This document shows, in pieces, positions 13,793-49,505 of a stretch of DNA of 64,000 nt (positions within the stretch are counted from its first letter, which is position 1; the number at the start of each line of letters is the position of its first letter). Both the position numbers and the translations under genes were made by a program. The notes under the pieces were generated by a model. That model did no database searches. It was not told the origin of the DNA and saw only the letters and a program-made list of their open reading frames with translations. The DNA comes from a virus (taxonomy: Duplodnaviria; Caudoviricetes). The stretch lies in the IMG/VR virus record IMGVR_UViG_3300005686_000008, one strand, 5' to 3'.

Positions 13793-13796
13793 ACAT

Positions 13797-15747: not shown

Positions 15748-17790
15748 ATGGGTTATCAATTTCTAACTCCGATTCTTTTTGGCGAAAATCTCGTCCAAGT
15801 TGCCTATGGAACAGGAAGTCCAGAGGGGGTTGTTACAGCTCCCGTTGGAAGCGTATATCTTCGTTCTGATGCCTCTGGCTCATCGGACGCTTTGTGGGTA
15901 AAAGGAAGCGGAACTGGTAATACTGGTTGGTCTCAAATTACGGCTGGCGTTGGAGCGTCCGGTTATTCAGGTTATTCAGGATATTCAGGCTTTAGTGGCT
16001 ATTCAGGATTTTCAGGATATAGCGGTTCTGGCTTTAGCGGTTACTCTGGTTATGGAACTTCTGGTTTCTCCGGTTATTCAGGAAGCGTTACAGATGCAAC
16101 GTTTGTTCCTCTTGGAACTCCTACCGATGGATTCTGGACTGACGGACTTAATCCTTGGACTGTTTCGACAACCGTTGCTGATGCATTAGATGATTGTAAT
16201 GAACTTTTTAGTTATCTTGCTCCTGCAAATGCATCTGATTTGTCTGGTAATCTTACAATGGCAAACACAACATTGTATACTGGATATGTTTCAAATGGAA
16301 ATACAAACTATAAAACTGGACTAGGAGCTGGATCTCAATATACGACAATTATTAATGACCCAACATTCACGCTAACAAGTCCAAGTACGTCAACAGCTTT
16401 CAATAAAGCAGATGAAGGTTATACTCGTTGGTATATTGCTGTTGGAACTGGATCTTATGGCGCTGCAACTGATGAAGTTAATCATGCGACAAATTTCGTT
16501 GAAGGAAGTAGAGCAGGAACTCAGGGTACGACTCCTTGGACTGATGGACAGCTTTCTGTTACTTCTGTTGCATGGTATAACTCTTTCCCGAAATGGCAAA
16601 AAGGAAACGCTGTTATAACTATTACGGCTGCTCAGTTGTCTCAGGGATATAATAAGATGAAGATGACCAGAGAGGGAAGCTTTACAACTCAGTCGTCAAA
16701 TGATTATGAGGTTTTCTACGACAATGATGCAGGCGCTAATCCATCTGTTTCTGGAACTCCAACAGCGGTAGAAGGGGCAACTGTTAATACGAGATATCTT
16801 TCTGGAGTTAAGTTTTATGATAGAGGAACAACGTTCAAAGTTGGTTGCGTTGGACTAGATTGTTTTGATAATGTTTATGTTCTCAATCCTCTTGTAATTA
16901 CTTCATCGAATAGCAATTCTATGGGGAACGCTTCTATTCCCTGGAATGACGCCACGGTAACAGGAGTTTCTGCTATTCCTGTTATTGGAGAGACAATGAC
17001 TGTTACTGATAAGGTAATAACAGTACCATCTAGTAACGTTAGAAGCACGAACGCTCGTGTTACTATAACACCATCCGATCCTTACGGGTCATATTCTGCG
17101 GTATCTTCTGCTTCGGAAAATAGATTGATTGATGGTTATTTGAATAATGCATCAGGAACATCCACTGATACAGCAGAATATTTTGATGATGAATGGTATA
17201 GGATGTTATCAAACTTTAATACTCTAAGCACTACCTATTCTTCTGGAGGAACAGGAGGTTGGGACTCTTCAGTGTCGTTAGTATCTGGAACGACTGGATA
17301 TGATGGTTTGCAATGCTTTAATGGAGGATTAAAGTATCCAGTTACTAACTATACAAGTGGATATTTACCATCAACGGGTCAGGTTAATTATTCTTCTGCA
17401 TCAGGAAATAGGGTCTATATTAGATATTTTTATGTTGGAGCAGGAATTCAGAACTTAGTATTTACATTAGCGAATCAGTCCGGAACAACAAGTTTTGTTT
17501 CAGTAGCGACTGGTCCAAGTTCTAATAATCTAACTCTAGAAATGCTTGCTCCTGCAACAACCGTGGATGGGTCTTCTGTTGTTGAATGGAAAGATTGTTA
17601 TGTTGATTACACAATAGATACGGACATAGGATGTTATGTTAGCGGAACAAAATCTTCATCAACAAGTAACTGGGCTTGTACTTTAGGAACAAAATCAACA
17701 TCAACTAGCGGAAATGTTATTGCTATTAGGATTACAGCGGCGGCAGCTTGGACTGGGGTTTTGGAGACAATATCGGTATCAGGATCATAA
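15748..17790 (+). CDS. Ser/Thr/Gly-rich fibre-like structural protein with (SGY/F)n repeats
   Basis: GTGSPEGVVTAPVGS.YLR.D....LWVK.SGTGNTGW fibre motif, an SGYSGFSG tract and beta-rich S/T domains. Confidence 0.7.
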   Translation: MGYQFLTPILFGENLVQVAYGTGSPEGVVTAPVGSVYLRSDASGSSDALWVKGSGTGNTGWSQITAGVGASGYSGYSGYSGFSGYSGFSGYSGSGFSGYSGYGTSGFSGYSGSVTDATFVPLGTPTDGFWTDGLNPWTVSTTVADALDDCNELFSYLAPANASDLSGNLTMANTTLYTGYVSNGNTNYKTGLGAGSQYTTIINDPTFTLTSPSTSTAFNKADEGYTRWYIAVGTGSYGAATDEVNHATNFVEGSRAGTQGTTPWTDGQLSVTSVAWYNSFPKWQKGNAVITITAAQLSQGYNKMKMTREGSFTTQSSNDYEVFYDNDAGANPSVSGTPTAVEGATVNTRYLSGVKFYDRGTTFKVGCVGLDCFDNVYVLNPLVITSSNSNSMGNASIPWNDATVTGVSAIPVIGETMTVTDKVITVPSSNVRSTNARVTITPSDPYGSYSAVSSASENRLIDGYLNNASGTSTDTAEYFDDEWYRMLSNFNTLSTTYSSGGTGGWDSSVSLVSGTTGYDGLQCFNGGLKYPVTNYTSGYLPSTGQVNYSSASGNRVYIRYFYVGAGIQNLVFTLANQSGTTSFVSVATGPSSNNLTLEMLAPATTVDGSSVVEWKDCYVDYTIDTDIGCYVSGTKSSSTSNWACTLGTKSTSTSGNVIAIRITAAAAWTGVLETISVSGS

Positions 17791-17799
17791 AGGTAATTC

Positions 17800-20001
17800 A
17801 TGTCTTTTTCAGTTGAATCATTAACTCAGGCGGCATTTAAGAAACTCTTCGGTTTAGCTCATACCGAAGTCAAGGGCTATCCGCTTGGGAATGAAGGTAT
17901 TGCAAGCCAAATTACTATTGTGGCTTCTGATGTTTATGTTGATACTATTCCGGCGACAGCGGGAGCTGTTGCAAACGTTATTGTTGCTTGTACAAATGCT
18001 ACAAACGGTCAAACTGATAGTTATTTGACTGTTTCTCAAAATCTTTCTGTTGCTCCAGATGGTTCTGGAGAGGGTCACGCTTATCTTGTAACGGTTCCTG
18101 CTGGACACGGTTTGATTGGAGAAATTAATCCACTTACTGGTGTTGCATATGCAGAGGGTAGCGTTGTTATGTCCATAATTCCAAAGAAGTTTGGAACGAC
18201 ATGGCGACCAATATTGTATGATTCTGGAAAAGTAGAAATTCCTCCGCTTTCAAGTCTTGATTGGATTCTTGATGAGAGAGGTATTATTGTTATACGAGAC
18301 AATTCTACAGCGCCTGCATACCTTGGATGTTATGTTTATATTGGAGATACGTTGGCTGATACTGCTGGCGTTTCTGGTTATTCAGGTTATTCATCAGCTT
18401 CCGGTTTTAGCGGCTATTCATCAACTTCAGGCTTCTCTGGATATTCATCGACTTCAGGTTTTTCAGGATATTCTGGTTCAGGCTTCAGCGGTTATTCAGG
18501 ATATGGACAGTCTGGATTTAGTGGATATTCTGGTTATGGAACATCGGGCTTTTCTGGTTATTCAGGACCGGCAGGCATAGGAACTCAAGGAGATTCAGGG
18601 TTTTCGGGCTATTCTGGCCTCAGCGGTTTCTCTGGTTATTCTGGCCGTTCAGGTTTTAGCGGATATTCTGGTGCAGGTTTCGTTTGGCAAGGTACTTGGT
18701 CTTCAATGGGGGCTTATGTAACAAACGATGTTGTTTCTTATAATGGAAGTTCTTATATATGTATTTCATCTTTGGACACTTGGCCGGCAGATCCACCTGA
18801 TATTGATGCTTTACATTGGAGCTTAATGTCTTCTTCTGGATATTCTGGTTATTCTGGCAGATCTGGCTTTTCTGGTTATTCAGGCTTTAGTGGATATTCT
18901 GGCTTTTCTGGTTTCTCAGGATATTCAGGCTTCTCTGGATATTCCGGCTTTAGCGGCTTCTCAGGTTATTCATCAACGTCAGGTTTTAGTGGATATTCTG
19001 GCTTTTCAGGCTATTCTTCAACATCTGGCTTTAGCGGATATAGCGGCTTTAGTGGTTTCTCTGGATATTCAGGGCGTTCTGGATTTAGCGGATATTCAGG
19101 TTTTAGCGGCTTCTCAGGTTATCGAGGAGTTTTTGGTGGAGACAGTCAGCCTCAGTGGTTTGATACAGGAACAACAGCGACGGACCCTGGCGCTCCTTAT
19201 GTAGCGTTTAATAATGCTACATATTCTTCTGTAACTGAGATATATATAAGTAATACAAATTCAGATGGGGCTAACACTGATCCGTGGCTTGGGTTTCTTG
19301 GCGATTCTACAAATCCTGTTAAAGGAATTTTAAGAGTTGTTTCTAGAAATAATTCTGCCAATTTTGCAATATTTAGCGTTGCAAGTGTTTTAAATAATAC
19401 AGACTGGTTTACTATAGGAGTTAGTTATATAATTCATAATAATGCTTTTTCTGCGTCTGAAGAAGTAATTGTTACTTTTGCTCATGCAGGAGATTCTGGT
19501 TTCTCAGGATATAGCGGCTTTAGTGGATATTCAGGACGTTCCGGTTTCTCGGGATATTCAGGATTTAGTGGTTATTCTGCATTTTCCGGTTATTCCAGCT
19601 TTAGCGGTTATTCTGGATTCTCAGGATATTCAGGAGCAGGTTCAACAAAGCTTGTATCAGCAGTTCTTTCAACTGCTGGCGATGTTGCTTTTGTTACTTC
19701 TCCTGTTACTGGAACTATTACGGCTTCTTATATTACAGGACATTCTGCAACCGGCGCAGCAACTGCTGGATCTGCGGTTGTTGATGTATGGAAAGATACA
19801 AACGCAAATTATCCGCCAACAGTAGCGGATACTATAACCGCATCTGCTAAACCAACAATAAGTTCTGCTAACAAGTCTGTAGATACAACTCTTACAGGAT
19901 GGACAACTGCGGTGACTGCTGGCGATTGGTTGGTGTTTAAATTAGATTCGATATCAACAGTAGCATATGTTATATGCTCTTTGAAAATAACAATACCTTA
20001 A
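17800..20001 (+). CDS. fibre protein with three (S-G-Y/F)n tracts and a CBM5/12-like module
   Basis: Gly-every-third tracts at about 18373-18670, 18835-19120 and 19495-19635. WQGTW....Y..NDVVSYNGSSYIC......PP.....W resembles a small carbohydrate-binding module. Confidence 0.72.
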   Translation: MSFSVESLTQAAFKKLFGLAHTEVKGYPLGNEGIASQITIVASDVYVDTIPATAGAVANVIVACTNATNGQTDSYLTVSQNLSVAPDGSGEGHAYLVTVPAGHGLIGEINPLTGVAYAEGSVVMSIIPKKFGTTWRPILYDSGKVEIPPLSSLDWILDERGIIVIRDNSTAPAYLGCYVYIGDTLADTAGVSGYSGYSSASGFSGYSSTSGFSGYSSTSGFSGYSGSGFSGYSGYGQSGFSGYSGYGTSGFSGYSGPAGIGTQGDSGFSGYSGLSGFSGYSGRSGFSGYSGAGFVWQGTWSSMGAYVTNDVVSYNGSSYICISSLDTWPADPPDIDALHWSLMSSSGYSGYSGRSGFSGYSGFSGYSGFSGFSGYSGFSGYSGFSGFSGYSSTSGFSGYSGFSGYSSTSGFSGYSGFSGFSGYSGRSGFSGYSGFSGFSGYRGVFGGDSQPQWFDTGTTATDPGAPYVAFNNATYSSVTEIYISNTNSDGANTDPWLGFLGDSTNPVKGILRVVSRNNSANFAIFSVASVLNNTDWFTIGVSYIIHNNAFSASEEVIVTFAHAGDSGFSGYSGFSGYSGRSGFSGYSGFSGYSAFSGYSSFSGYSGFSGYSGAGSTKLVSAVLSTAGDVAFVTSPVTGTITASYITGHSATGAATAGSAVVDVWKDTNANYPPTVADTITASAKPTISSANKSVDTTLTGWTTAVTAGDWLVFKLDSISTVAYVICSLKITIP

Positions 20002-25714: not shown

Positions 25715-28700
25715 ATGCAAAATGTGAAGTATTCGATTGTAATTCCGACCTACAATCATCTTGAAGACTGCCTTAAGCCCTGTATTGAAAGCATTATTAG
25801 GTATACAGACCTCTCAAATGTAGAGGTTATTGTTGTTGCTAATGGTTGTACAGATGGAACGAGGCAGTATGTTGAAAGTCTTGGCGAACATTTTAGACTT
25901 ATTTGGGCCGACGCTCCTCTCGGTTACATAAAACCAACTAATATGGGTATTAGAGAGGCAAAAGGCGAATATGTCGTCCTTTTGAATAATGATGTTATCT
26001 TATGCGAACAGCCTAAGAATCTTTGGTTATTTATGCTGGAAAGCCCGTTTATCAAAGATCCTAAAACGGGAATAACTGGTCCATATAAAGACATTCTTTT
26101 TTATTGGGAAAGCGGTAGGATAAACTTCAGAAATGAGTTTATTGCATTTTTCTGCGCAATGTTCAAAAGATCTATTATCAGTTTGGTGGGTCTTTTAGAT
26201 GAAGATTTTGGCTTAGGATATGAAGAAGATGTAGAGTTTTGCACAAGAATAACCAAGGCTGGATTCAAAGTTGTTGAAGTTCCAGATGACATGCATTATG
26301 ATCTAAATATAACAAGAGAATATCTAGAAGCAAATCCTAATATCAACACAAAGTATCCTCTGATTCATCTTGATAGGATGACCTTTAAGCATATTACTCT
26401 TCCTCGCCAAAGCAGTCCGCTGTTGAAAAAGCATAGGCCTCCAAAGTATTCCATTATAATTCCAACCTACAATCATCTCGAAGATTGCCTCAAGCCTTGC
26501 ATTGAAAGCATTATTAGGTATACAGATCTTTCAGAAGTAGAGGTTATCATCGTTGCCAATGGGTGTACAGATGGTACTGAAGAATATGTAAGGAATCTTG
26601 GATATCCATTTAAGCTATTGCATATTAAAGAGGCTGCTGGATATACAAAATCTACGAATGAGGGCATTAAGGTATCGCAAGGCAAGTACGTTATATTGCT
26701 CAATAATGATAACGTGATTATGGAATCTCCAAAGCATGAATGGATAAAGGCTTTAGAGAGACCGTTTAGAGAGCAAAGTAATGTCGGAATAACTGGCGTT
26801 GCCAAAGATGTTCATTATGGAACAGGTTGCGAGTTCTTGTTGTTTTTCTGTGTAATGATTGATTACAATGTTTTTAGGAAAATCGGGTTCTTGGATGAGG
26901 TATTCAATCCCGGTTATGGAGAGGATATAGATTTTTGTAACAAAGTAAAGAGGAATGGTCTAAAGGTTGTACAGGTTCCCGAAGATTGCACTTTGACCAG
27001 ACCGAGACTTGCTCATGAACATGGTCTTAATTTTCCTATTTGGCATAAAGGAAGCAAAACGGTGTCTACATTCAAGGACTGGGATAAGACTGTTCCTAGA
27101 AATGAAAAGATACTCTTTGAAAGATATGGTAAGGCATCCTATCCAAAGTATTCGATTGTAATTCCAACCTACAATCACTTTCAGGATTGTCTCAAACCTT
27201 GTATTGAAAGCGTTATTAGGCATACGAACCTTTCAAACGTAGAGGTTATCGTTGTTGCTAATGGTTGTACAGATGGAACTAGAGAGTATGTTGAAAGCCT
27301 TGGAAGTCCATTTAGGCTTATTTGGAATGAGGCTCCTCTTGGATATATAAAGCCAACCAATATGGGCATCAGGGAGGCAAAAGGCGAGTATGTTATACTG
27401 TTAAATAATGATACGCAAATAGTTGCGCCAGGATGGATTGAGATTCTCGCTTCTCCTTTTGCATCAGGCAATATTGGTATAACTGGCCCCAGAAAGGCAT
27501 GGAGAGATGATGTAAAGAAAGAGTATATCCTTTTCTTCTGCGCTATGATAAAGAAAGAGGTTTTCAACAAGATAGGTTTATTAGATGAGAGTTTTGGTAT
27601 CGGGTATAATGAGGATACGGATTTCTGCATACGAGCAGTAAAAGCAGGTTATGAACTTGTTGAAGTTCCGTATGATATCAAGTATAGCGATAGCAATAAG
27701 GGAAATGATAGCAGAGAAATGCCATTCCCGATTTGTCATACAGGCGGAAGAACATTTTCGAGCATGTTTGAGAGTTCTGCGGCAGGGGCATCTAAGAATG
27801 TCCATTTATTGTATGCAAAGCATTGTCCAAAGGTTTATGACTGTTTCATGTTTTTCAATGAGCTTGATTTGCTTGAAATAAGACTTAATGAACTTGATGA
27901 GGTTGTGGATAAGTTTGTACTTATTGAAGCAAGATACACTCACCAAGGCAAACCAAAGCCTCTTTATTTTGACGAGAACAAGCAAAGGTTTGCTAAGTTC
28001 TTACACAAGATTGATCATATTGTAGTTGAAGAGTTTCCAGAGGCAAAAAGTAAATGGGACAATGAGATTTTTCAGCGTAATGCAGCGATGAATGTTTTGA
28101 AGGATGCTATTCCTAATGCTGTTGTTATATTGTCAGATGTAGACGAGATACCTAGTAAGTCGGCTATACTTGAGTATTTTTCTTTGACAGGAATTTATAC
28201 GTTAGAGCAGAGGGTTTTCTACTATCATTTGAACTGCGAGATTCCTGATTCTAAATGGACATTGGCTAAGATATGTAGATATTCAGATATTGGCAATAGA
28301 ACGATAAACGATATTAGAACATCTCCTGTTGTTAATGTTTTGAAAAACGCAGGTTGTCATTTTAGTTACATTGGAGGAAGCGAGCAGATAATATCTAAGA
28401 TCAAAGCTTTTTCTCATCTTGAATATAATCAAGAACACATTGTAAACAAGAATGCAATAGAAAGTAGGGTGAGCGAGTGTAAAGATGTTTTTGGTAGAGA
28501 TATTTCTTTCCAGTTGGTTGAAGATCTTTCGTATTTGCCTTCATTTGTTTTGAATAATCTTGATAAGTATAGAAGACTAGGGCTTATTAGAAGCGCAAAA
28601 GAAGACGGAAGGCCAAAGGTTTATGACTGTTTCATGTTCTTCAATGAGATGGATGTTTTGGAAATAAGGCTCAATGAGCTTGACGAGGTTGTTGATAGGT

Positions 28701-31700
28701 TCGTTCTTGTTGAGGCCAAATATACTCATCAAGGCAAGCCAAAGCCTCTTTATTTTGATGAGAACAAGCAAAGATTTGCTAAGTTCTTACACAAGATTGA
28801 TCATATTGTAGTTGAAGAGTTTCCAGAAACGAATGACCCTTGGGTTAGGGAGCCTTTTCAGCGAAATCAGATTATGAGAGGGCTTAAGAACTGTAAACCA
28901 GATGATATCATTATTGTTTCAGATGTAGATGAAATCCCCAAAGCGTCTGTTGTGAAACAATATAGAAAAGAGATGGGCTTAACTTGTATTCAAACAAGGC
29001 TCTTTTATTACAAACTGAACTATTTATGCCCTGTAAAGTGGTTTAAACTAAGGATTTTCCCATTCTCTGAGCTTAGAGGGGGAGAAGTTCAGCAAGTTAG
29101 AGGCTCTAGAGATTATGACTATAAAACCGTTATTGATGACGGAGGTTGGCATTTTAGCTTCTTGGGCGATAGAGAGCATATAAGGCAGAAAATTGAAAGT
29201 TATGGTCACATTGAGTTCAATAACGATCTTATAAAAAGTGACGAGAATATAGATAAGGCGATTAATGAGGGAAGAGATGTTTTCGGTAGGCCTCAGGTTC
29301 AGTTTGAGACTGTTGCTATTGATGATTCTTTCCCGAAATTCGTTATTGACAATTTAGATAAATACAGAAAAGCAGGATTAATAGGCGGAACAAAAATGAA
29401 GACTATGAAAGAAAGAATGCAGGAAGAACATAGTGGAACTTATGATGAAATGTATATGTATGACGTTTATAGTCTAGAAGACAAGGATATTAGAAACAAG
29501 GTTATTGTTGATATTGGTGCTAATTTTGGTTTCTTTTCTTTTAGATGCTTGGAAATGGGAGCTAAAAAGTGTTATTGCTTTGAGCCGCAATCAGATAACT
29601 ATAAAAAGCTAGTTGAACTCATAGATGAATTTGGTTTCAAAGAGAAAATTGATGCGAAGAAGTTGGCCGTTCTTGATGGTAGCGTAAGCGAAGTTGTAAT
29701 GGGAGGGAAAGATGTCTTCAGTAATATTTGGGGACAAGGCGACTCTAATAAGGTAAAATGCATTTCTTTCCAAGAAGCCTTTTCGTATGTAAAAGAGAAT
29801 GAAGATTTGGTTCTAAAGGTTGATTGCGAGGGTTCTGAGTTTGAGATTATCTTCAATTCTCCTCCTGAAATATTAAAGAGATTTTCTTTCATGTATATAG
29901 AAATACATGATGATATGAATCCTAATTATAAGGGAAGAATGGAAGACCTTATAAAGTATATAGAAGATCTTGGCTTTATTCAAGAGAAGCATGGCCCTCA
30001 GTTTGGTATGTTTTGGGCTGATGGGTCGTTTACTCCGTCTCCAATTAAGTGTATACGTTTTAGAAGGAAAGCAGAGGCGTCGTTGCCAGATGGGTGGTTT
30101 GGAGAAGAGGACGTATCCGTATATAAGAGTTTAGTGTCAGCGGTGCCTGAAAATGGGAAGATGGCAGAAATCGGAGTGTGGCAAGGAAGGTCTCTTTGCT
30201 CTGTTGCCAAGATAATCAAAGATAAAAACTTACAAGTCGCAGCTATTGATACGTTCAAGGGAAGCGAAGGAGAAAAAGAACATACATCTTTGGCCGAGAA
30301 GATTAGTATTTTGGATGCGTTTAAGAATAACATACTTAGATTTGGTCTAGAAAAGAACATTTCTATATATAGTATGACTTCTGCTTCTGCTTCCGCCGCA
30401 ATTCCTAATCGTTCATTAGATTTTGTGTTTATAGATGCAAATCATTCGTATGAATATGTTTTGCAAGATATAAAGCTTTGGTTGCCCAAAGTGAAGGATG
30501 GAGGAGTTATTGCTGGACATGATTTCTTGTATAGCGAAGGAGTTAGAACCGCTGTGCATGAAACTTTTGGCAATTCTTTTGATGTTCAATCTAATCTTTG
30601 GTTTACAACAGTAAAGAGATCTTCTGTTACTCCGTCTACTCCAAAGTATTCGATTGTAATTCCGACTTACAATCATCTTGATGATTGCCTCAAGCCTTGC
30701 ATTGAAAGCATTATTAAGCATACAGACCTTTCAAATGTAGAGGTTATTGTTGTTGCTAATGGATGCACAGATGGGACGAGAAGTTATGTTGAAGGCCTTG
30801 GAAGTCCGTTCAAGTTAGTATGGATGGACGAATCTGCTGGATATACTAGAGCCGCAAATGAGGGAATAAAAGCCTCCAAGGGAGAGTTTGTTGTTTTGCT
30901 TAATAATGATGTCATTCTTCTTGACTATCAAAAGAAAAATGAATGGCTAGATTTGATGGCAAGGCCATTTAGTAGTAAAGATAAGGTTGGAGTTACTGGG
31001 CCAAGCAAAAACTATTGCAATTTCTTAGATGCTTTTGATAACAAAGATGGTGAATTTCTTATATTTTTCTGCGTAATGATTCCTAGGAAGTTGTTTGATG
31101 AATTGGGGTTATTAGATGAAAGATTCAATCCTGGAGCCGGAGAAGATTTTGATTTCTGTATCAGAGCGAAAGCCGCAGGCTATTCCCTAGTACAGGTTCC
31201 TGATAATGACCAATATGTTCATTCTGGTCCGGGTGTCGCAACAAGTCCTTACCCTCTATGGCACAAGAACGCCTCCACAAGAGGAGAGGACCACACGAAC
31301 ATAAAAATCAATAATGTAAAGCTTATCAATAAGTATAAGACAAAGAATCTAAAGATAAACTTCATCAATGCTGAACAAAACTTGCCAGGATTCTTTTCTG
31401 CTGATATGGATACTTCAAAAACGCATCTTATGTTAGATGCTAGGAAAATGGATTTAGAAGATAACTCTGTCACAGAGATTGTTCTTCAGAATTTGCTTGA
31501 GAGATTTGGTATTAATGATATAACAAGCGTCATTAAAGAGAGTAATAGAGTTCTAACGGATGGCGGCAAGATAGTTGTTGTTACAGAGGATGGAGCAAAA
31601 GACTTCTTAGTAAGTCAGCTATTGGCTACTGGATTTTCTTCTTTGTTTGCTCAGTATTCAAATGGGAAGCTTCATCTTTCTGCCGTAAAAGAGAAAAGGA

Positions 31701-33199
31701 AGGTATTTGATTGCTTCCCCTTTTTCAATGAACTAGACTTATTGGAGATTAGGCTTAATGAGCTTGACCCATATGTTGATTATTTTGTTTTATCAGAGAT
31801 GACAATAACTCATCAAGGCAAGCCAAAGCCTCTTTATTTCAATGAGAACAAGCAAAGATTTGCTAAGTTCTTACACAAGATAGTCCATGTTATAGTTGAT
31901 GATTGTCCAAGATTTAGCGATCCTTGGTTAAGGGAGCATTATCAGAGGAATGTTTTGGATAGGGGCTTGAAAGATTGTAAGCCCAAAGACATTATTATTT
32001 TGTCTGATATTGACGAGATTCCAAGAGGAGAGAAGATAAAAGAATATGATCCTTCTTTGAGTTTTATGTGTTTTGAGATGAATCAGTATAACTATTACCT
32101 CAATATGAATGTTGGAATTGGAGAGTTGGAAACGGGGGTTTTTGGAAGGATAACAACTCTTGAAAATCTCAGAAAAATGAACGCATGGTTGACTGATTTG
32201 AGATATGCGGAGTGCGGAAAAGACCGACTTATACACAATGGAGGTTGGCACTTTAGTTGGATTGGAGGGGCAAATAGGATAATAGAAAAGCTTGAATCTT
32301 ATGCTCATGAAGAGATAAATCAGGATCAATACAAAAAGATTGAACTCATAAACAAGAATATTTCTGAAAGCACTGATGCATTTGGAAGAGAGAATCCTCC
32401 TCACAAGCCAATGCTTGTTGAGGTTGATAATTCTTTTCCAAAGTTCATCCGAGACAATTATGACGATCTCGTTGGAAAAGGTTTGATCAAGCCAATAGAG
32501 AAGTCATCTAAAGTTGCTATTATAATGCCGTATTACAATGATAGTTCTTTGATGATATCTTCTGTTATGGGAATATTGAATCAAACGTATAGAGACTGGG
32601 TTCTCTTCTTAGTTGATGACGGTTCTTCAGAAAACAATAAGGCGGCAAAGGTTCTTGGTCGTCACTATCCAAGCCGTATAAGGATTATAGAAAAAGAAAA
32701 CGGAGGAGTTAGTTCCGCTAGGAATGCGGCATTAGATCTTGTTAGAAAAGATCCATCGTTTGCTTATATTGCATATTGCGATTCTGACGATGTATGGGAT
32801 GAGGGGTATTTGGAATCTCAGATTGAAGCTATTCAAAATTGCGACCTTGTTTATTGCTATCCAAGACACGAGTTTGACAATGGAGAAAAAGCGTATCCTC
32901 AAGGAATCCCAAATCCGCCAGAGTTTCCGGGTTGGAAGTTCATGCTCAATAATGCCTTTATGTATATATCAGGAGTTGTTCATAAGAGAAACTGTATGGC
33001 TGTAGGAGATTTTGATGGGACTATTAACTCTATAGAGGATTGGGATATGTGGATAAGGATTGCTAAGGCAGAATATTCTATCAAGAAGAACGAAAAAGCA
33101 TCTTTTACCTACATAGTGAAGATCAATGGAAACATGGCTTCTAAAAGAACGCAGGAAATATTAGATAGATTCAAGGCTAAACATGGAGTAATCGCATGA
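25715..33199 (+). CDS. giant multimodular glycosyl/methyltransferase: GT2-GT2-GT2-GT17-GT17-FkbM MTase-Methyltransf_24-GT2-(degenerate MTase)-GT17-GT2
   Basis: Four KYSI.IPTYNH..DCLKPC...LLNND modules (about 25727, 26444, 27146, 30644). Three KV.DCF.FFNE.D.LEIRLNELD...SD.DEIP...G.HFS modules (about 27830, 28616, 31700). Also VDIGANFG...LKVDCEGSE; EIGVWQGRS...FIDANHSY...GGVIAGHD; and a terminal IIMPYYN..LVDDGS..CDSDD..EDWD.W GT2. Confidence 0.92.
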   Translation: MQNVKYSIVIPTYNHLEDCLKPCIESIIRYTDLSNVEVIVVANGCTDGTRQYVESLGEHFRLIWADAPLGYIKPTNMGIREAKGEYVVLLNNDVILCEQPKNLWLFMLESPFIKDPKTGITGPYKDILFYWESGRINFRNEFIAFFCAMFKRSIISLVGLLDEDFGLGYEEDVEFCTRITKAGFKVVEVPDDMHYDLNITREYLEANPNINTKYPLIHLDRMTFKHITLPRQSSPLLKKHRPPKYSIIIPTYNHLEDCLKPCIESIIRYTDLSEVEVIIVANGCTDGTEEYVRNLGYPFKLLHIKEAAGYTKSTNEGIKVSQGKYVILLNNDNVIMESPKHEWIKALERPFREQSNVGITGVAKDVHYGTGCEFLLFFCVMIDYNVFRKIGFLDEVFNPGYGEDIDFCNKVKRNGLKVVQVPEDCTLTRPRLAHEHGLNFPIWHKGSKTVSTFKDWDKTVPRNEKILFERYGKASYPKYSIVIPTYNHFQDCLKPCIESVIRHTNLSNVEVIVVANGCTDGTREYVESLGSPFRLIWNEAPLGYIKPTNMGIREAKGEYVILLNNDTQIVAPGWIEILASPFASGNIGITGPRKAWRDDVKKEYILFFCAMIKKEVFNKIGLLDESFGIGYNEDTDFCIRAVKAGYELVEVPYDIKYSDSNKGNDSREMPFPICHTGGRTFSSMFESSAAGASKNVHLLYAKHCPKVYDCFMFFNELDLLEIRLNELDEVVDKFVLIEARYTHQGKPKPLYFDENKQRFAKFLHKIDHIVVEEFPEAKSKWDNEIFQRNAAMNVLKDAIPNAVVILSDVDEIPSKSAILEYFSLTGIYTLEQRVFYYHLNCEIPDSKWTLAKICRYSDIGNRTINDIRTSPVVNVLKNAGCHFSYIGGSEQIISKIKAFSHLEYNQEHIVNKNAIESRVSECKDVFGRDISFQLVEDLSYLPSFVLNNLDKYRRLGLIRSAKEDGRPKVYDCFMFFNEMDVLEIRLNELDEVVDRFVLVEAKYTHQGKPKPLYFDENKQRFAKFLHKIDHIVVEEFPETNDPWVREPFQRNQIMRGLKNCKPDDIIIVSDVDEIPKASVVKQYRKEMGLTCIQTRLFYYKLNYLCPVKWFKLRIFPFSELRGGEVQQVRGSRDYDYKTVIDDGGWHFSFLGDREHIRQKIESYGHIEFNNDLIKSDENIDKAINEGRDVFGRPQVQFETVAIDDSFPKFVIDNLDKYRKAGLIGGTKMKTMKERMQEEHSGTYDEMYMYDVYSLEDKDIRNKVIVDIGANFGFFSFRCLEMGAKKCYCFEPQSDNYKKLVELIDEFGFKEKIDAKKLAVLDGSVSEVVMGGKDVFSNIWGQGDSNKVKCISFQEAFSYVKENEDLVLKVDCEGSEFEIIFNSPPEILKRFSFMYIEIHDDMNPNYKGRMEDLIKYIEDLGFIQEKHGPQFGMFWADGSFTPSPIKCIRFRRKAEASLPDGWFGEEDVSVYKSLVSAVPENGKMAEIGVWQGRSLCSVAKIIKDKNLQVAAIDTFKGSEGEKEHTSLAEKISILDAFKNNILRFGLEKNISIYSMTSASASAAIPNRSLDFVFIDANHSYEYVLQDIKLWLPKVKDGGVIAGHDFLYSEGVRTAVHETFGNSFDVQSNLWFTTVKRSSVTPSTPKYSIVIPTYNHLDDCLKPCIESIIKHTDLSNVEVIVVANGCTDGTRSYVEGLGSPFKLVWMDESAGYTRAANEGIKASKGEFVVLLNNDVILLDYQKKNEWLDLMARPFSSKDKVGVTGPSKNYCNFLDAFDNKDGEFLIFFCVMIPRKLFDELGLLDERFNPGAGEDFDFCIRAKAAGYSLVQVPDNDQYVHSGPGVATSPYPLWHKNASTRGEDHTNIKINNVKLINKYKTKNLKINFINAEQNLPGFFSADMDTSKTHLMLDARKMDLEDNSVTEIVLQNLLERFGINDITSVIKESNRVLTDGGKIVVVTEDGAKDFLVSQLLATGFSSLFAQYSNGKLHLSAVKEKRKVFDCFPFFNELDLLEIRLNELDPYVDYFVLSEMTITHQGKPKPLYFNENKQRFAKFLHKIVHVIVDDCPRFSDPWLREHYQRNVLDRGLKDCKPKDIIILSDIDEIPRGEKIKEYDPSLSFMCFEMNQYNYYLNMNVGIGELETGVFGRITTLENLRKMNAWLTDLRYAECGKDRLIHNGGWHFSWIGGANRIIEKLESYAHEEINQDQYKKIELINKNISESTDAFGRENPPHKPMLVEVDNSFPKFIRDNYDDLVGKGLIKPIEKSSKVAIIMPYYNDSSLMISSVMGILNQTYRDWVLFLVDDGSSENNKAAKVLGRHYPSRIRIIEKENGGVSSARNAALDLVRKDPSFAYIAYCDSDDVWDEGYLESQIEAIQNCDLVYCYPRHEFDNGEKAYPQGIPNPPEFPGWKFMLNNAFMYISGVVHKRNCMAVGDFDGTINSIEDWDMWIRIAKAEYSIKKNEKASFTYIVKINGNMASKRTQEILDRFKAKHGVIA

Positions 33200-34155
33200 G
33201 TATATTTGTAACTGGTGGTGCAGGTTTTATAGGTTCAAACTTTATAAGATTACTTCTTAACAGCGGTCACAAAGTTACCAATGTTGATAGTCTAACTTAC
33301 GCTGCAAATCCAGAAACAATTAGAGACTTCGAGAAGAATCCTAATTATAGGTTTGTTAATGCTGATATAAGAGATAAGAAGGCTATGTATGATGTTATTG
33401 ATAAGGGTTCTTTTGTTTTCAATTTTGCAGCAGAAAGTCATGTTGATAACTCTATAAGAAACCCTTATATCTTTTTGGAAACCAATGTATTTGGAGTACA
33501 GAATCTACTTGAAGTATGTAAAGATAAAAAGGTAGACCTGTTTGTTCAGATTAGCACTGATGAAGTGTATGGTTCTCTTTCTATGGATCAAAAGTCTTCT
33601 CAAGAGACTGATATTCTTTGTCCGTCTTCTCCATATAGCGCTTCAAAGGCTGCTGCTGAAATGTTGTGTTTTGCTTATATGAGAACGTTTAAGGTTCCGA
33701 TTATTGTAACACGATCTTCTAATAATTTCGGTCCATATCAGTTTCCAGAAAAGATTATACCGTTGTTCATTTCTAACCTTATGAGCGGTAAGAAGGTTCC
33801 GGTATATGGTAATGGAGGTAATATAAGGGATTGGATATTTGTAGAAGACAACTGCGAAGCAATATTGGCTGTTGCCAATAGAGGTGTTACTGGTGAGATT
33901 TATAACATTGGCGGAGGAAATGAAGTCAAAAACATAGATCTAACGAAAATCATACTTGAAAAAATGGGTAAAGATGAATCTAGTATAGAGTTTGTTGAAG
34001 ATAGGCTTGGACATGATCTAAGGTATTCTCTTGATTGTTCTAAAACAATGGATCTTGGATGGAGTCCTAAAAATAGCTTTGAAACGAACATATCTAAAAC
34101 GGTTGATTGGTATTTGAAAAATAGACAATGGTGGGAACCTCTTAGAAAGAAGTAA
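33196..34155 (+). CDS. rmlB: dTDP-glucose 4,6-dehydratase
   Basis: VTGGAGFIGSNF, D.LTYA, FAAESHVD.SI, STDEVYG, PSSPYSASKA, NNFGPYQFPEK, RDWI.VED and DR.GHD.RY. Confidence 0.96.
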   Translation: MSIFVTGGAGFIGSNFIRLLLNSGHKVTNVDSLTYAANPETIRDFEKNPNYRFVNADIRDKKAMYDVIDKGSFVFNFAAESHVDNSIRNPYIFLETNVFGVQNLLEVCKDKKVDLFVQISTDEVYGSLSMDQKSSQETDILCPSSPYSASKAAAEMLCFAYMRTFKVPIIVTRSSNNFGPYQFPEKIIPLFISNLMSGKKVPVYGNGGNIRDWIFVEDNCEAILAVANRGVTGEIYNIGGGNEVKNIDLTKIILEKMGKDESSIEFVEDRLGHDLRYSLDCSKTMDLGWSPKNSFETNISKTVDWYLKNRQWWEPLRKK

Positions 34156-34156
34156 A

Positions 34157-34987
34157 ATGAATAACAATGTTCTTGTAATTGGTAATGGCTATTTGGGGAA
34201 TAAGGTTGCAGAATATTTTGATTGCTACTTATTCGAAGAAAAATTGTGTACGCAGGCTGAGGCTGATTTTTGTATTAAGGTATGGAAGCCTAAGTTTGTA
34301 ATCAACTGCGCTGGTAAAACTGGAAGACCAAATATTGATTGGTGCGAAGTCCATAAAGAAGAGACATTCTTCGGTAATGTTATTCTTCCTACTTATATTC
34401 AATCAGCATGTAATAAATTTGGCGCAAAAATGGTTCATGTCGGTAGCGGATGTATCTATCAGGGAAACTATGATGGAAATGGGTTTACAGAAGATGCTGC
34501 TCCAAATCATGACTCAAGTTACTATAGTTGGACAAAGATAGTTTCAGAAAGATACTTGAATGGTCACGATGTTTTGCAACTTAGAATTAGAATGCCGCTT
34601 AGTTCTGATAGGAGTCCAAGGAATCTTCTTTCAAAGCTTCTTGGATACAGCATGGTTGTAGACGCTCCAAATTCAATAACTTATATTCCTGATCTTTTGG
34701 AGGTTATGAGGTCTCTTATTTCAATGAACGCTTCTGGTATTTACAATGTTGTTAATCCAGACCCGATATTGCATAGTGAAATACTTAAGAAGTATGAACA
34801 GATAAGCGGTAAAACGTTATCTTATAAGACAATAACAGCAGATGATTTGGATTCTATTACTTTGGCAAAAAGGTCTAACTGTGTTCTATCAATAAAGAAA
34901 TTGAATGCTCTTGGTCTACAAATGAGACCGTCAAGTTATGCTGTTGATGATTGTATTAGAAAATATGTTGAAGGAGGCAATGTATGA
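34157..34987 (+). CDS. rmlD: NDP-4-keto-6-deoxyglucose 3,5-epimerase/4-reductase (RmlD-fold, NRS/ER-type)
   Basis: CAGKTGRPNIDWCE.HK.ET...NV, GSGCIY, F.E.D..N...S.YS.TK, LR.RMP......RNL..KL..Y..V...NS.T and RSNC.L. Confidence 0.85.
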   Translation: MNNNVLVIGNGYLGNKVAEYFDCYLFEEKLCTQAEADFCIKVWKPKFVINCAGKTGRPNIDWCEVHKEETFFGNVILPTYIQSACNKFGAKMVHVGSGCIYQGNYDGNGFTEDAAPNHDSSYYSWTKIVSERYLNGHDVLQLRIRMPLSSDRSPRNLLSKLLGYSMVVDAPNSITYIPDLLEVMRSLISMNASGIYNVVNPDPILHSEILKKYEQISGKTLSYKTITADDLDSITLAKRSNCVLSIKKLNALGLQMRPSSYAVDDCIRKYVEGGNV

Positions 34988-35091
34988 AAGGAGTAATTCT
35001 TGCAGGAGGAACTGGGTCTAGACTTTTTCCAATTACGAAGGTTACGAACTGTATTTTATTTATTGTTTTGTCGATAGATATAGTATGCTAA
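34984..35091 (+). pseudogene. rmlA: orphaned original 5' end of rmlA (35-aa stub)
   Basis: ATGA-coupled ORF reading MKGVILAGGTGSRLFPITKVTN, then unrelated CILFIVLSIDIVC*. Not in the supplied ORF track. Confidence 0.85.
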
Positions 35092-35983
35092 AGAAATTAG
35101 ATATATTAGATTCTGAAATAAGAAGATTGTATTTTGTTGAAAAGAAATCTCAAAAAGCCATATCGAAAGAGCTTGGGGTTTCGCAGTGGACTGTTTTTCA
35201 AAGAATGAAAAACTCCAATATGAAAGCATTTCCCAAAGAAAGATTTCTTAGTCATCAGGTTTATTGTATTAAGCAAGATGTTTTAGATTGTATTACTACT
35301 GATGTAGCTTGGATTCTTGGGTGGTTTCTCTCTGATGGTTTTGTATCTAAAGATGCAAATTATTTTGGATGTAAAGTTGCAATAAAAGATCAATCCATAT
35401 TAGAGAAAATTAAAGACTTTTTTGGATATTCTGGTCCAATTCTTGAACAAAACTCTTATCTAAAGAAAACAAAGAAAATCTATAAAAACAAATTGCTTAA
35501 AATGTCTTCTAAAGTATTGCGAAATAAGATTATTGAGCTGGGTATAAAGCCAGCAAAAACTAGCAAAGAAAGATATTTGAAATGTATTAACGGAGAAGAA
35601 TTGGATAGGGCTTTTATTAGAGGAATATTTGAAGGGGATGGCAGTCTTCTTGTTTATCCGCATAGGGAATCTTATTGTTTTCAGATTGTTGGTACAAAAG
35701 AATTGTTGCTTGAAATACAAAAAAGACTGATTGGATATCTTGGAATTCAAAAAACAAAGTTGTATTGTCAAAATGAAAAATCAAATCATTATATGATGAG
35801 ATATACTGGTAAGCATCAGGTTTATAAAATATCTGAATGGATATATCGTGATAATCCAAAAAATAGACTTGAAAGAAAATACTTGAAATATCAAGAAATG
35901 GAGGCAATATGTCAGTGAAGAAGGGTGTTCTATTGGCTGGCGGTACAGGTTCTCGTCTTGGCCCTCTTTGTAAAGTAACGAAT
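35050..35983 (+). mobile_element. free-standing LAGLIDADG homing-endonuclease cassette carrying a replacement rmlA 5' end
   Basis: Homology of the stub to RmlA breaks after codon N22 (35049). A second recoded copy ending ...KVTN (35983) joins KHLLP at 35984. Confidence 0.75.
35085..35918 (+). CDS. LAGLIDADG homing endonuclease with N-terminal HTH
   Basis: LY....KSQ..I.KELGVSQ.TV..R HTH; WILGWFLSDG and FIRGIFEGDGS motifs; C-terminal L.RKY. Confidence 0.9.
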   Translation: MLKKLDILDSEIRRLYFVEKKSQKAISKELGVSQWTVFQRMKNSNMKAFPKERFLSHQVYCIKQDVLDCITTDVAWILGWFLSDGFVSKDANYFGCKVAIKDQSILEKIKDFFGYSGPILEQNSYLKKTKKIYKNKLLKMSSKVLRNKIIELGIKPAKTSKERYLKCINGEELDRAFIRGIFEGDGSLLVYPHRESYCFQIVGTKELLLEIQKRLIGYLGIQKTKLYCQNEKSNHYMMRYTGKHQVYKISEWIYRDNPKNRLERKYLKYQEMEAICQ

Positions 35984-36634
35984 AAACATTTGCTTCCAAT
36001 ATACAATAAGCCAATGATTTTTTATCCATTGCAGACTCTTATTGGAATGGGAATAAAAGATATTCTAATCGTTTCTGGAACTGAACATTGCGGACATATT
36101 TTGCAACTGCTTGGTAGCGGTAAAGACTTTGGAGTAAGCATTTCTTATAAAGTACAAGATGAGGCTGGCGGCATTGCTCAGGCTCTGGGCTTAGCAGAGA
36201 ATTTTGTTGGAGATAATTCCGTTGCCGTTATTCTTGGAGATAATATTTTTGAAGACAAGTTTGATGTACATGATTTCACAACAGGAGCAAGACTTTTTAT
36301 CAAAGAAACAGATGAGCCTCGTAGGTTTGGTGTTCCAACTATTGTTAATGGAAAGATCGTTTGGATTTTGGAAAAGCCAAAAGACCCTCCATCTAATTAT
36401 GCGGTTACTGGTTTGTATGTATATGATAAGGACGTTTTTACTATCATTAGAAAACTGAAGCCTTCATCAAGGGGAGAGCTTGAGATAACTGACGTTAATA
36501 ATGCTTATATCAAAAAGGATGGCGGCGTACATTATAGCGTTGTGAAAGGCGAGTGGACAGATGCTGGAACATTCGAGAGCCTTTTCAAGGCTAACAATAT
36601 AGCAAGGAATATTGTAGTTAAAGCGGAGAAATAA
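35909..36634 (+). CDS. rmlA: glucose-1-phosphate thymidylyltransferase (short form)
   Basis: LAGGTGSRL.PL....NKHLLPIY.KPMI.YPL, Q....GIAQAL, LGDNIF, EKP..P.SNYAVTGLY.YD, PS.RGELEITD.N and W.DAGT.ESL. Confidence 0.95.
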   Translation: MSVKKGVLLAGGTGSRLGPLCKVTNKHLLPIYNKPMIFYPLQTLIGMGIKDILIVSGTEHCGHILQLLGSGKDFGVSISYKVQDEAGGIAQALGLAENFVGDNSVAVILGDNIFEDKFDVHDFTTGARLFIKETDEPRRFGVPTIVNGKIVWILEKPKDPPSNYAVTGLYVYDKDVFTIIRKLKPSSRGELEITDVNNAYIKKDGGVHYSVVKGEWTDAGTFESLFKANNIARNIVVKAEK

Positions 36635-37660
36635 ATGAAAAATGTTGAAGTAACAGCAGAAGTATCAACTAAAGACCGTTACTATACAACTCTTCCGATG
36701 TGTATAGTTGCGATTGCTAATCAAACTCATAAACCTAAGAAGATACTTATATTTGATGATGGAGAACAAAAAGATCTAAGAAATGATCCTACATATGCCA
36801 GTATATTTGGCTTATTGTTTTCTAAGGGAATTGATTTTCAAGTTATTTTTGGTCAAAAGAAGGGACAGGTTGCTAATCACCAAATAGCTATTGGACTGTC
36901 TCAGACTGAATGGATATGGAGAGTAGATGATGATGATGTTCCAGAGCCAAACGTGCTTGAAATTTTGGTCCGTAACATCAAAGATGATGTTGGAGTTATA
37001 AGCGGTCTTGTTTTGATTCCTGGACAGCCAGAGGCGAATCCTGCAAGTACATCTGGCAGAATAGAAGACATTTTTACTAGCGCAAATGTTCAATGGTCAA
37101 GGTTCAAGGGAGTCAAAGAAGTTGACCATATGAACAATACGTTTTTGTTTAGAAAGTCAGCGGCAACTCATGGATATTGTTTGAAACTAAGTCCTGCCGG
37201 ACATAGAGAAGAAACAATGTTCACATACGAGTTCAAGAGGAAGGGATTCAAACTTCTTGTTGATCCAGAAGCTATTATATGGCATATGAGGTCTCCTCAA
37301 GGAGGAATCCGTTCATATACCCAGGAATTTTTCTGGGAACACGACGAAATGATATTCCATAAGTATTTAGAAGATGTTGGAATTTCTGTAGATAGGCCGC
37401 AACTTATTGTTTTAGATAGCGGTCTTGGAGATCATTACGCTTTCAAAATGATTATGCCAGAAATAAAGGCTAAGTACAAGAATCTAACGCTTGCTGTTTG
37501 TTATCCTGAAGTTTTTGAAGATGAAGGCGTAAGACTTATTTCTATAGCGGAAGCTTACTCTATAGGAGTAGATAAAGATAAACACAATGTGTATAAATTC
37601 ATGACAGATCGAGGTTGGACAGAAAGCCTTGTTGAAGCTTATAGGAAAATGTGGTTATGA
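36635..37660 (+). CDS. GT2 glycosyltransferase fused to a GT9-like N-terminal lobe
   Basis: ST.DR.....C...I.NQT.KP..I.IFDDG and WRVDDDD; C-terminal LDSGLGDH..F.M..PEIK.KY. Confidence 0.8.
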   Translation: MKNVEVTAEVSTKDRYYTTLPMCIVAIANQTHKPKKILIFDDGEQKDLRNDPTYASIFGLLFSKGIDFQVIFGQKKGQVANHQIAIGLSQTEWIWRVDDDDVPEPNVLEILVRNIKDDVGVISGLVLIPGQPEANPASTSGRIEDIFTSANVQWSRFKGVKEVDHMNNTFLFRKSAATHGYCLKLSPAGHREETMFTYEFKRKGFKLLVDPEAIIWHMRSPQGGIRSYTQEFFWEHDEMIFHKYLEDVGISVDRPQLIVLDSGLGDHYAFKMIMPEIKAKYKNLTLAVCYPEVFEDEGVRLISIAEAYSIGVDKDKHNVYKFMTDRGWTESLVEAYRKMWL

Positions 37661-38136
37661 AAAAGATTATTATAAGTCCATTCTCAAAAAAGTTAAGAAG
37701 GTTTAATTTGAATGAACCAGAAAAGGATAATCCTAAAAACTATCCATTTTGGGAGGATGTTGTAAAACTTTTGCGAAGTAAAGGCTATTATGTTATACAG
37801 GTCGGAGTCTCGGGTGAGCTTCAAATCGGAGCTAATGAGGTTCGATACGATTTGAGTTTGAAAGATTTGAAAAAATTACTAGACGAAGTAGATACTTGGG
37901 CTTCGGTTGATAATTTCTTCAATCATTTTGCTACTTATTATAAAAAAAGAGGAGTTGTTGTTTTTGGTCGTTCAGATCCAAAGATTTATGGCTATCCTGT
38001 AAATATTAATTTGTTAAAAGATAAAAAGTTTCTAAGAACAGACCAGTTTGGACTGTGGGAAAGTCTTGATTTTAAACAAGATGTTTTTGTTGAACCATAC
38101 ATGGTTGTTTCGGCTATAGAAACAATTTTTGTTTAA
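37657..38136 (+). CDS. GT9-like C-terminal lobe (split glycosyltransferase)
   Basis: K.YP.W..VV.LL......VIQVG, SL.DL..LL......SVD.F..HFA....K.GVVVFG.SDP..YGY..N.NL; ATGA-coupled. Confidence 0.75.
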   Translation: MKKIIISPFSKKLRRFNLNEPEKDNPKNYPFWEDVVKLLRSKGYYVIQVGVSGELQIGANEVRYDLSLKDLKKLLDEVDTWASVDNFFNHFATYYKKRGVVVFGRSDPKIYGYPVNINLLKDKKFLRTDQFGLWESLDFKQDVFVEPYMVVSAIETIFV

Positions 38137-41044: not shown

Positions 41045-41076
41045 TAGCATAATATTTTTTTGGACGATAGTAAAAT

Positions 41077-49473: not shown

Positions 49474-49505
49474 ATTGTTTTAAGCCTCTACTAAAAGGAG
49501 AGTAC

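Follow-up and report, generated by a model that had tools for sequence, protein, structure and literature searches.

Can a single phage gene encode a whole assembly line for a glycan? The question is raised by a gene located on the plus strand (25715..33199) of a 64,000-nucleotide (nt) stretch of DNA, called the window throughout, to which all coordinates refer. The window is part of the IMG/VR virus record IMGVR_UViG_3300005686_000008 (Duplodnaviria; Caudoviricetes), which is 370,652 bp long, is estimated to be 73% complete, and originates from bioreactor sludge metagenomes. The gene is one open reading frame (ORF) without internal stops, is preceded by the ribosome-binding site GAGGA 7 nt 5' of its ATG, and encodes a protein of 2494 amino acids (aa), designated P0001. 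Domain matches and conserved residues support the view of P0001 as a single polypeptide predicted to carry eight Leloir-type glycosyltransferase (GT) modules and two intact S-adenosylmethionine (SAM) methyltransferase modules.

Module content and integrity of P0001

The whole protein and its 11 single pieces were scanned against Pfam. The resulting order, GT2-GT2-GT2-GT17-GT17-FkbM-Methyltransf_24-GT2-(truncated methyltransferase)-GT17-GT2, reproduces exactly the 11-module order (five GT2, three GT17) reported in a preliminary description of the sequence. The translation contains every motif quoted there, with four copies of LNND, three of SD.DEIP, and CDSDD; the GT17 units end as described, with NLDKYR..GLI or DNYDD...GLI. 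PF00535 (GT2) is matched five times, with 68-84 bits each (cut-off 23.3), and PF04724 (GT17) three times, with 114.6-125.6 bits (cut-off 26) over profile positions ~63-299 of 348. All Pfam matches lie far above the curated cut-offs, that to Methyltransf_11 being excepted. Segments left unassigned never exceed about 30 aa, and the protein is soluble by sequence, as no transmembrane-like or hydrophobic segment was found in the 2494 aa. The GT2 modules are of two types. Modules 1, 2, 3 and 8 belong to type A, and their metal/donor motif is NND, which keeps only the last Asp of the canonical DxD; module 11 is of type B, and features DSDD.

The integrity of the modules was evaluated in a set of 76 relatives of 1371-2997 aa, from which the near-identical P0002 was left out. 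About 480 modules were cut out (229 type-A GT2, 98 GT17, 69 FkbM, 32 Methyltransf_24, 31 small-methyltransferase and 20 type-B GT2), and columns identical in at least 85% of the family copies were taken as conserved. The four type-A GT2 modules of P0001 keep all 31 conserved columns, apart from conservative changes, and the type-B module 11 keeps 33 of 33. NND is itself the consensus of the type-A family, the last Asp being conserved in 96% of the 229 copies. GT17 modules 5 and 10 retain all the 46 conserved columns. Module 4 retains 44, the deviating residues being A802, at a position six residues ahead of the DxD where Asp is 96% conserved, and C881, found in place of the 97%-conserved Trp of the GGWHF motif; judging from these replacements, the module may be impaired or changed in specificity. 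In the FkbM module 6, residues D1266, G1268 and G1272 of the Asp/Gly-rich SAM loop are kept, as are all the columns conserved in at least 98% of the copies; F1352 (for Leu) and M1393 (for Ile) deviate at two columns of about 90% conservation. The Methyltransf_24 module 7 keeps D1574, H1577, D1585, H1602 and D1603.

Module 9 measures 93 aa, versus about 160 aa in most relatives, and alignments indicate that some 45 residues have been deleted. INFINAE stands in place of the glycine loop LNLGxGG, no EH motif is left, and the model displays only a small alpha/beta piece. As far as sequence can tell, the module lacks the full Rossmann core and the glycine-rich SAM loop of class I SAM methyltransferases. 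Since the SAM loop is missing, the working methyltransferases would be two, not three. The "2-3 methyltransferases" of the preliminary description are thus to be read as two intact modules, FkbM and Methyltransf_24, plus a truncated remnant.

Redundancy of the modules, a case that the preliminary description had allowed for, is not what was found. In pairwise comparisons of the cut modules, full-module identity within P0001 is 47-57% for the four GT2 and 44-52% for the three GT17 modules, and it is unevenly distributed, the N-terminal parts of paralogs being 65-81% and the C-terminal parts only 33-41% identical. Positional counterparts, which exist in other phages for most modules, share 73-77% of the N-terminal and 53-70% of the C-terminal residues. 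For ten of the 11 modules, a module of some other protein is at least as similar as any P0001 paralog (45-58%), the exception being module 4; for the nine modules with a full domain, the best outside match is 60-72% identical for GTs and 47-49% for methyltransferases. The duplications are therefore older than the split of these phages, and all the copies have been retained. GT-A enzymes bind the nucleotide sugar with their N-terminal region, as far as the DxD; the acceptor site is provided by the C-terminal region. The association of similar N-terminal with divergent C-terminal parts suggests one donor type per module class, and acceptors or linkages that differ from module to module.

Structure prediction, which had been recommended for each module, was run on modules 5, 8 and 9, and a GT-A fold was modelled for the first two. 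For the GT17 module 5, AlphaFold2 reached a predicted local distance difference test score (pLDDT) of 96.8 from a 71-sequence alignment. Foldseek retrieved generic GT-A enzymes only, with template modelling (TM) scores <0.5, and sequence comparison of the GT17 module with the PDB gave nothing meaningful, so that donor and acceptor of the GT17 modules are not readable from structure. For the GT2 module 8 the best Foldseek matches were 6p61, the Escherichia coli K4 chondroitin polymerase K4CP, the fucosyltransferase WrtF and the rhamnosyltransferase RmlT, with E-values from 1e-9 to 8e-14; in the model, resemblance to any of these does not fix the donor sugar. 

The three GT17 modules pass the Pfam cut-off of the family of MGAT3/GnT-III (GT17, PF04724) and keep the D-x-D-E-I-P motif. 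The type II membrane anchor of MGAT3 is missing from P0001, and its acceptor, the bisected N-glycan, is impossible in a bacterium. Judged on this basis, the modules are members of the same sequence family, not functional equivalents of MGAT3. The beta-1,4-N-acetylglucosamine (GlcNAc) activity of MGAT3, offered earlier as a guide, is not transferable, given the partial match to the profile and the lack of a relative with solved structure.

A protein of this kind could be an artefact, or carry little activity. An assembly chimera of repeated modules, which the preliminary description had itself pointed to as a danger, is excluded short of long reads, and its probability is regarded as close to nil. 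In its favour, Logan contigs (k=31) break inside the gene at words shared by different modules. Depth in these contigs is even and alternative joints are absent, but they do not span the gene, and neither prove nor disprove the order of the modules. The order is supported by other evidence. The longest exact repeat within the gene is 53 nt, shorter than ordinary reads, and the DNA stretches shared by modules (215-267 nt) are only 70-89% identical. The identical 2494-aa sequence is found on 11 contigs, up to 505,915 bp in length, for a phage size of roughly 500 kb. A 99.8% identical variant, with four substitutions in 2398 residues, shows the same module order, and the backbone order is common to relatives. 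It is very unlikely, too, that few modules are active and the others decayed or purely structural, and that less chemistry is performed than the size of the protein implies. This is suggested by module 9, clearly a remnant, by the loss of two conserved residues in module 4, and by the NND found in place of DxD in the type-A GT2 modules. Against it, nine modules keep essentially all the conserved columns, and each of the nine has a positional counterpart 47-72% identical in other phages, which points to selection on each, NND being moreover the family consensus. Widespread inactivity, the other case considered in the preliminary description, is argued against by modules that retain nearly all conserved residues, modules 4 and 9 being the doubtful ones.

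A variant call has been noted in a 42-kb contig of the same phage type (P0002/P0352), where the gene is split into ORFs of 2403 and 85 aa. The split implies a stop or a frameshift inside the last GT2 module, just after DSDD, and could be due to natural truncation or to an error in sequencing.

A family of combinatorial architectures

P0001 belongs to a metagenomic family of which 77 members, P0001 included, were analysed, out of a total of 93 matches. Modules are indicated here by letters, A and B denoting type-A and type-B GT2, S GT17, F FkbM, m Methyltransf_24 and x the small methyltransferase. With these six classes, the 77 proteins display 59 distinct architectures, of up to 12 recognised modules and up to 2997 aa, and a type-A GT2 comes first in 51 of the 59. 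The adjacencies A-x, S-F, S-B, x-F and m-S are enriched, and S-A and F-A are depleted. Although the related sequences counted in these statistics are not independent, module order across the family is non-random, and would fit either a functional order or inherited cassettes. The closest relative, P0003, resides at a syntenic locus, has the backbone A-A-...-A-S-F-...-A-x-S-B in common with P0001, and differs from it by whole modules. Scanned with family profiles, P0003 features 13 modules and a single stretch of about 200 aa without assignment. Such stretches, 145-540 aa long, separate recognised modules in P0003, P0010, P0013, P0029, P0036 and other members, and may correspond to further transferase types, beyond the six module classes.

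Among the best 80 loci of IMG/VR, 66 have the GT17-like unit as a gene of its own (about 260-310 aa), often near stand-alone FkbM, Methyltransf_24 or GT2 genes, and fusions are confined to one clade. In one of the relatives, an intein interrupts the T4-type portal gene (L009:16757-20596). Stand-alone relatives of every module class occur also in bacterial genomes, such as those of Bdellovibrio and Flavobacteriales. A profile search of 1.84 billion representative proteins identified 13,135 proteins with a GT17-like domain, ranging from 245 to 2846 aa among the 150 matches listed. In GenBank phages the P0001 gene found no match by megablast, and tblastn revealed no fused relative; its matches were all to single genes, GT17-like or GT2, of Synechococcus phages and of uncultured records, for example LR756502.

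The literature search retrieved no paper on phage or prokaryotic multi-module GT17/GT2 enzymes, none on the function of a prokaryotic or phage GT17 member, and no published enzyme with more than about four such transferase units; glycans are not mentioned in a 2026 jumbo-phage review. A 2022 review describes the three-domain protein A064R of Paramecium bursaria chlorella virus 1 (PBCV-1) as "one of the few" to have that many transferase domains, and refers to a Tupanvirus protein predicted to have four GT domains. Multi-domain glycosyltransferases as such are of a known kind. What appears undescribed is their scale here, the combinatorial nature of the family and its link to the serine-collagen fibres of huge phages.

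Genomic neighbourhood and collagen-like fibres

All the large genes are on one strand, and neighbours of the P0001 gene match phage tail-fibre, head-protease and terminase/PhoH families in PHROG (features of main interest are listed in Table 1).

Table 1. Modules of P0001 and neighbouring genes of interest, with positions in the window
Feature	Position	Strand	Evidence and remarks
Whole gene, P0001	25715..33199	+	2494-aa multi-module glycosyltransferase/methyltransferase, no transmembrane segment
Module 1, GT2 type A	25715..26443, aa 1-243	+	PF00535 E 1.4e-19; LNND and EED..FC motifs; 31 conserved columns kept except one D->E
Module 2, GT2 type A	26444..27148, aa 244-478	+	PF00535 E 1e-19; conserved columns all kept; 63% identity to second module of P0003
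Module 3, GT2 type A	27149..27814, aa 479-700	+	PF00535 E 1.8e-23; best PDB relative by sequence K4CP chondroitin polymerase A1 domain, E 8e-12
Module 4, GT17-like	27815..28594, aa 701-960	+	PF04724 E 3e-36; deviant copy (A802, C881); no clear ortholog in relatives
Module 5, GT17-like	28595..29359, aa 961-1215	+	PF04724 E 1.3e-35; all 46 conserved columns; 72% identity to P0003:1433-1686
Module 6, FkbM-family SAM methyltransferase	29360..30064, aa 1216-1450	+	TIGR01444 67.2 bits (cut-off 37.7); PF05050 E 5e-8, 33.6 bits (cut-off 22.7)
Module 7, Methyltransf_24/TylF-like O-methyltransferase	30065..30619, aa 1451-1635	+	PF13578 E 2.7e-22, 80 bits (cut-off 26.3); TylF E 5.6e-5
Module 8, GT2 type A	30620..31369, aa 1636-1885	+	PF00535 E 1.1e-18; AlphaFold2 model confident over GT-A part
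Module 9, truncated methyltransferase remnant	31370..31648, aa 1886-1978	+	PF08241 (Methyltransf_11) 21-23 bits (cut-off 21.2), profile positions 47-95 of 95
Module 10, GT17-like	31649..32449, aa 1979-2245	+	PF04724 E 6.9e-33; conserved columns all kept
Module 11, GT2 type B	32450..33199 including stop codon, aa 2246-2494	+	PF00535 E 1.4e-22; DDGS and DSDD motifs; best PDB relative K4CP A2 domain, E 5e-16
RmlB, dTDP-glucose 4,6-dehydratase	33196..34155	+	TIGR01181 439.5 bits (cut-off 365)
RmlD-like reductase, weak match	34157..34987	+	TIGR01214 43.6 bits, below cut-off; PF04321 E 1.6e-9
RmlA-like, glucose-1-phosphate thymidylyltransferase-like	35909..36634	+	PF00483 E 1.7e-52; TIGR01207 best match, 232 bits, below cut-off
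Conserved partner pair: 341-aa GT2 and 161-aa protein with faint GT9-like match	36635..38136	+	see text for occurrence in relatives
Conserved upstream set: GT4 glycosyltransferase, two unknown proteins, subtilase (S8)	11889..15351	+	see text for position in relatives
680-aa Ser/Thr-rich protein, candidate acceptor	15748..17790	+	short (Gly-Tyr/Phe-Ser)n stretch near N-terminus
733-aa collagen-like fibre, main candidate acceptor	17800..20001	+	Pfam Collagen E 2e-23; PHROG tail-fibre families E 8e-33

The stop codon of the P0001 gene overlaps the start of RmlB as ATGA, and RmlD-like and RmlA-like genes follow. A LAGLIDADG homing-endonuclease gene (35085-35918) is interposed between the latter two, and overlaps the RmlA start by 10 nt; as RmlD-like and RmlA-like genes are directly adjacent in the syntenic locus L004, it represents an insertion in the present phage. 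Of the 12 fused-family loci in the series L011-L023, 11 have the partner pair located past the RmlA-like gene, and L020 hosts the GT2 gene only. The upstream set made of GT4, unknown proteins and subtilase adjoins the big gene directly 5' in L008 and L010.

Repeats of the Gly-X-Ser type are encoded near sugar-nucleotide and glycosyltransferase genes, in the manner of the BclA system. Of the 64 Gly-X-Y triplets of the 733-aa fibre, 60 have Ser as their third residue and 51 have Phe or Tyr as their second. The fibre gene lies 5.7 kb upstream of the P0001 gene, and the 370-kb record contains no other long GXY ORF. Gly-Phe/Tyr-Ser fibre genes are found at no more than 10 kb from the big gene also in L004, L005/6 and L008. 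In IMG/VR, such genes occur within 10 kb at 8 of 13 multi-module-scored loci versus 2 of 67 single-module loci (Fisher p 1.8e-6), which speaks for a link of the multi-module genes with fibres. Collagen-like ORFs are present in L007, where the Gly-Phe/Tyr-Ser reading corresponds to an uncalled reverse-strand frame. In the same 338-kb relative, the stretch between the collagen-like genes and the multi-module gene (L007:4165-9779) holds two 2-oxoglutarate (2OG)-Fe(II) oxygenase genes, one methyltransferase gene and two further genes containing GT2, an arrangement that hints at hydroxylation of fibres besides glycosylation.

Other genes are worth reporting. Directly upstream of the P0001 gene, a 330-aa protein of no known family (24665-25657) is conserved, by phmmer, only in the two closest relatives L011 and L012, L011 being the same record as L004, in which the gene is called at 329 aa. 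A 1991-aa protein (3059-9034) matches a head-maturation-protease PHROG with its N-terminal ~190 residues, the remainder having no assignment. In a 627-aa protein (49470-51353) the N-terminal part matches terminase-large-subunit-type ATPase PHROGs and the C-terminal part PhoH-like PHROGs. Five more GT2-like genes, found outside the window at two other places of the record (295-1919 and 40410-42609 of the contig), denote further glycan loci in the same phage.

A putative role in fibre glycosylation

What follows on donor sugars, acceptor, order of action and biological role is inferred, the step to the fibres from gene neighbourhood and by analogy. With a confidence little above even, P0001 is taken to be a soluble cytoplasmic fusion that coats the serine-rich collagen-like fibres of the phage with a methylated glycan. 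Modules of one class, which have the donor-binding part in common, would probably use the same or a similar nucleotide sugar, and the differences in their acceptor-side parts would probably result in a different linkage per module. Placed side by side on one chain, the modules would build and methylate a hetero-oligosaccharide or a short polymer. Part of it may derive from a deoxythymidine diphosphate (dTDP)-6-deoxyhexose, made by the products of the translationally coupled RmlB, RmlD-like and RmlA-like genes. The likeliest acceptors are the serines of the (Gly-Phe/Tyr-Ser)n collagen-like fibres, the genes of which lie 6-10 kb upstream, and the outcome would be a glycosylated fibre coat on the virion. 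The fusion would provide fixed stoichiometry and proximity, not template-directed synthesis.

The individual ingredients of this proposal have parallels. PBCV-1 A064R is a GT-GT-methyltransferase fusion which builds and methylates the capsid glycan (PMC9614988). A064R and A111/114R, the latter with three GT domains, add 6-deoxyhexose-type sugars and O-methyl groups to the glycan of a virion protein in the cytoplasm (PMC9614988, PMC7826918). Like P0001, they are virus-encoded, soluble, multi-domain transferases. A064R, however, has three transferase domains against the ten modules regarded as probably working in P0001; its host is algal, not bacterial, and its domains appear to belong to families other than the GT2 and GT17-like ones of P0001. 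K4CP (PDB 2z86) and the Pasteurella heparosan synthase are the best solved relatives of both GT2 types of P0001. The A1 domain of K4CP is matched by type A and the A2 domain by type B. In these polymerases, too, GT-A domains are arranged in tandem on a single chain, and each domain uses a donor of its own. Identity of the P0001 GT2 modules to polymerases of this type is about 15-20%. These polymerases make a homogeneous polymer by two alternating domains and have no methyltransferases, whereas P0001 has eight GT modules of three kinds.

As to the acceptor, BclA of the Bacillus anthracis exosporium is a collagen-like fibre bearing an O-linked 6-deoxyhexose (rhamnose) oligosaccharide that ends in a methylated sugar (PMC6222408). 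BclA and the phage fibre both have a hydroxyl amino acid at the third triplet position. The repeats are Gly-Pro-Thr in the former and Gly-Phe/Tyr-Ser in the latter, the Bacillus enzymes are encoded by separate genes, and glycosylation of the phage fibre is putative. Sugar-nucleotide rml genes adjoin bclA in B. anthracis. In mycobacteriophages, enzymes of virion glycosylation are encoded by separate small genes. Phage glycosyltransferases are reported to decorate virion proteins of mycobacteriophages, and glycans are placed at the C-termini of capsid and tail-tube subunits (PMC12619734, citing Freeman et al. 2023), not on collagen-like fibres as proposed for P0001.

The preliminary description had likened P0001, as a single polypeptide that may add several sugars and methyl caps in sequence, to nonribosomal peptide synthetases (NRPS) and polyketide synthases (PKS). 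As in these, the P0001 family has many catalytic modules per polypeptide, combinatorial architectures (59 in 77 proteins) and a non-random order, and the part of the claim that concerns many apparently intact transferases on one chain stands. The analogy itself holds only loosely. The Pfam scan found no carrier, thiolation-type or phosphopantetheine-binding domain in P0001, nothing points to a tethered intermediate, and colinearity between module order and product is hypothetical.

Several observations weigh against a role of P0001 in fibre glycosylation. Module 4 may be inactive, and the four type-A GT2 modules have NND at the site of the canonical DxD. RmlC was not found in the 370-kb, 73%-complete record, and the dTDP-6-deoxyhexose is therefore not necessarily rhamnose. 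No protein O-glycosyltransferase family acting on Ser, as needed for the priming step, was identified, and no Gly-Phe/Tyr-Ser fibre was found in the flanks obtained for the relatives L009 and L010. The Fisher p-value given above for the co-occurrence with fibres in IMG/VR overstates the case, since the phages are related and not independent; L017, counted among the 13 multi-module loci, has in fact a single-module match.

The same genes may be read differently. The enzyme might synthesise or remodel a polysaccharide of the host surface (O-antigen, capsule or S-layer glycan), blocking superinfection or altering the infected cell. Clusters of glycosyltransferase and nucleoside diphosphate (NDP)-sugar genes have been so interpreted in jumbo phages (PMC7824862), and a host-surface role was proposed for those of jumbo cyanophages by Iyer and colleagues. 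The bacterial stand-alone relatives of every module class and the closest solved relatives, K4CP and heparosan synthase, both polysaccharide polymerases, agree with such a role. It is nevertheless considered rather unlikely. P0001 has no membrane segment, and neither a priming phosphoglycosyl transferase nor a Wzx flippase nor an ABC-2 permease was found in the 370-kb record, 73% complete, with PF02397, PF00953, PF01061 and PF01943, all of which favours glycosylation of fibres in the cytoplasm. At the sequence level, the lipid-linked acceptor, primer and Wzm/Wzt transporter that mark WbdA/WbdD-type, ABC-transporter-dependent polysaccharide synthesis are likewise not seen; the host could supply them. 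In addition, the P0001 gene resides among fibre and structural genes on the same strand, and P0001-type genes co-occur with Gly-X-Ser fibres. It is highly improbable, on the other hand, that the product is a polyprotein cut into separate enzymes by the subtilase encoded at the locus. The subtilase gene is indeed a conserved neighbour, and every module class exists also as a stand-alone gene in other phages, but linkers are short, no shared cleavage motif was seen beyond the conserved module starts, and subtilases beside fibre genes are more simply explained by fibre maturation. Glycosylation of DNA was also considered and set aside, as nothing at the locus resembles base-modification enzymes and the context is structural.

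Fibre glycosylation by P0001 could be taken one step further, by assuming that content and order of the modules in one giant polypeptide specify the glycan of the virion fibre, and that phages diversify this glycan by insertion, deletion and swap of modules. The differences by whole modules on the same backbone, observed between P0001 and P0003, fit this idea, which is tentative and on present grounds rather improbable. If true, it would make of these genes a glycan assembly line that is genetically readable and engineerable, with a logic comparable to that of NRPS and PKS. Glycans are normally built by many separate enzymes, the order of which must be established enzyme by enzyme; in this family a single gene holds as many as about 13 modules. 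A module grammar extending to the whole family, natural module-swap variants and a plausible acceptor next door make it testable whether module content predicts glycan structure. The family offers also an entry point to the function of prokaryotic GT17-like domains, present in more than 13,000 proteins of which none was found to be characterised, and possibly compact parts for glyco-engineering. It opens, finally, the question of whether methylated sugars cover the fibres of huge phages, in the way known for giant viruses and some mycobacteriophages.

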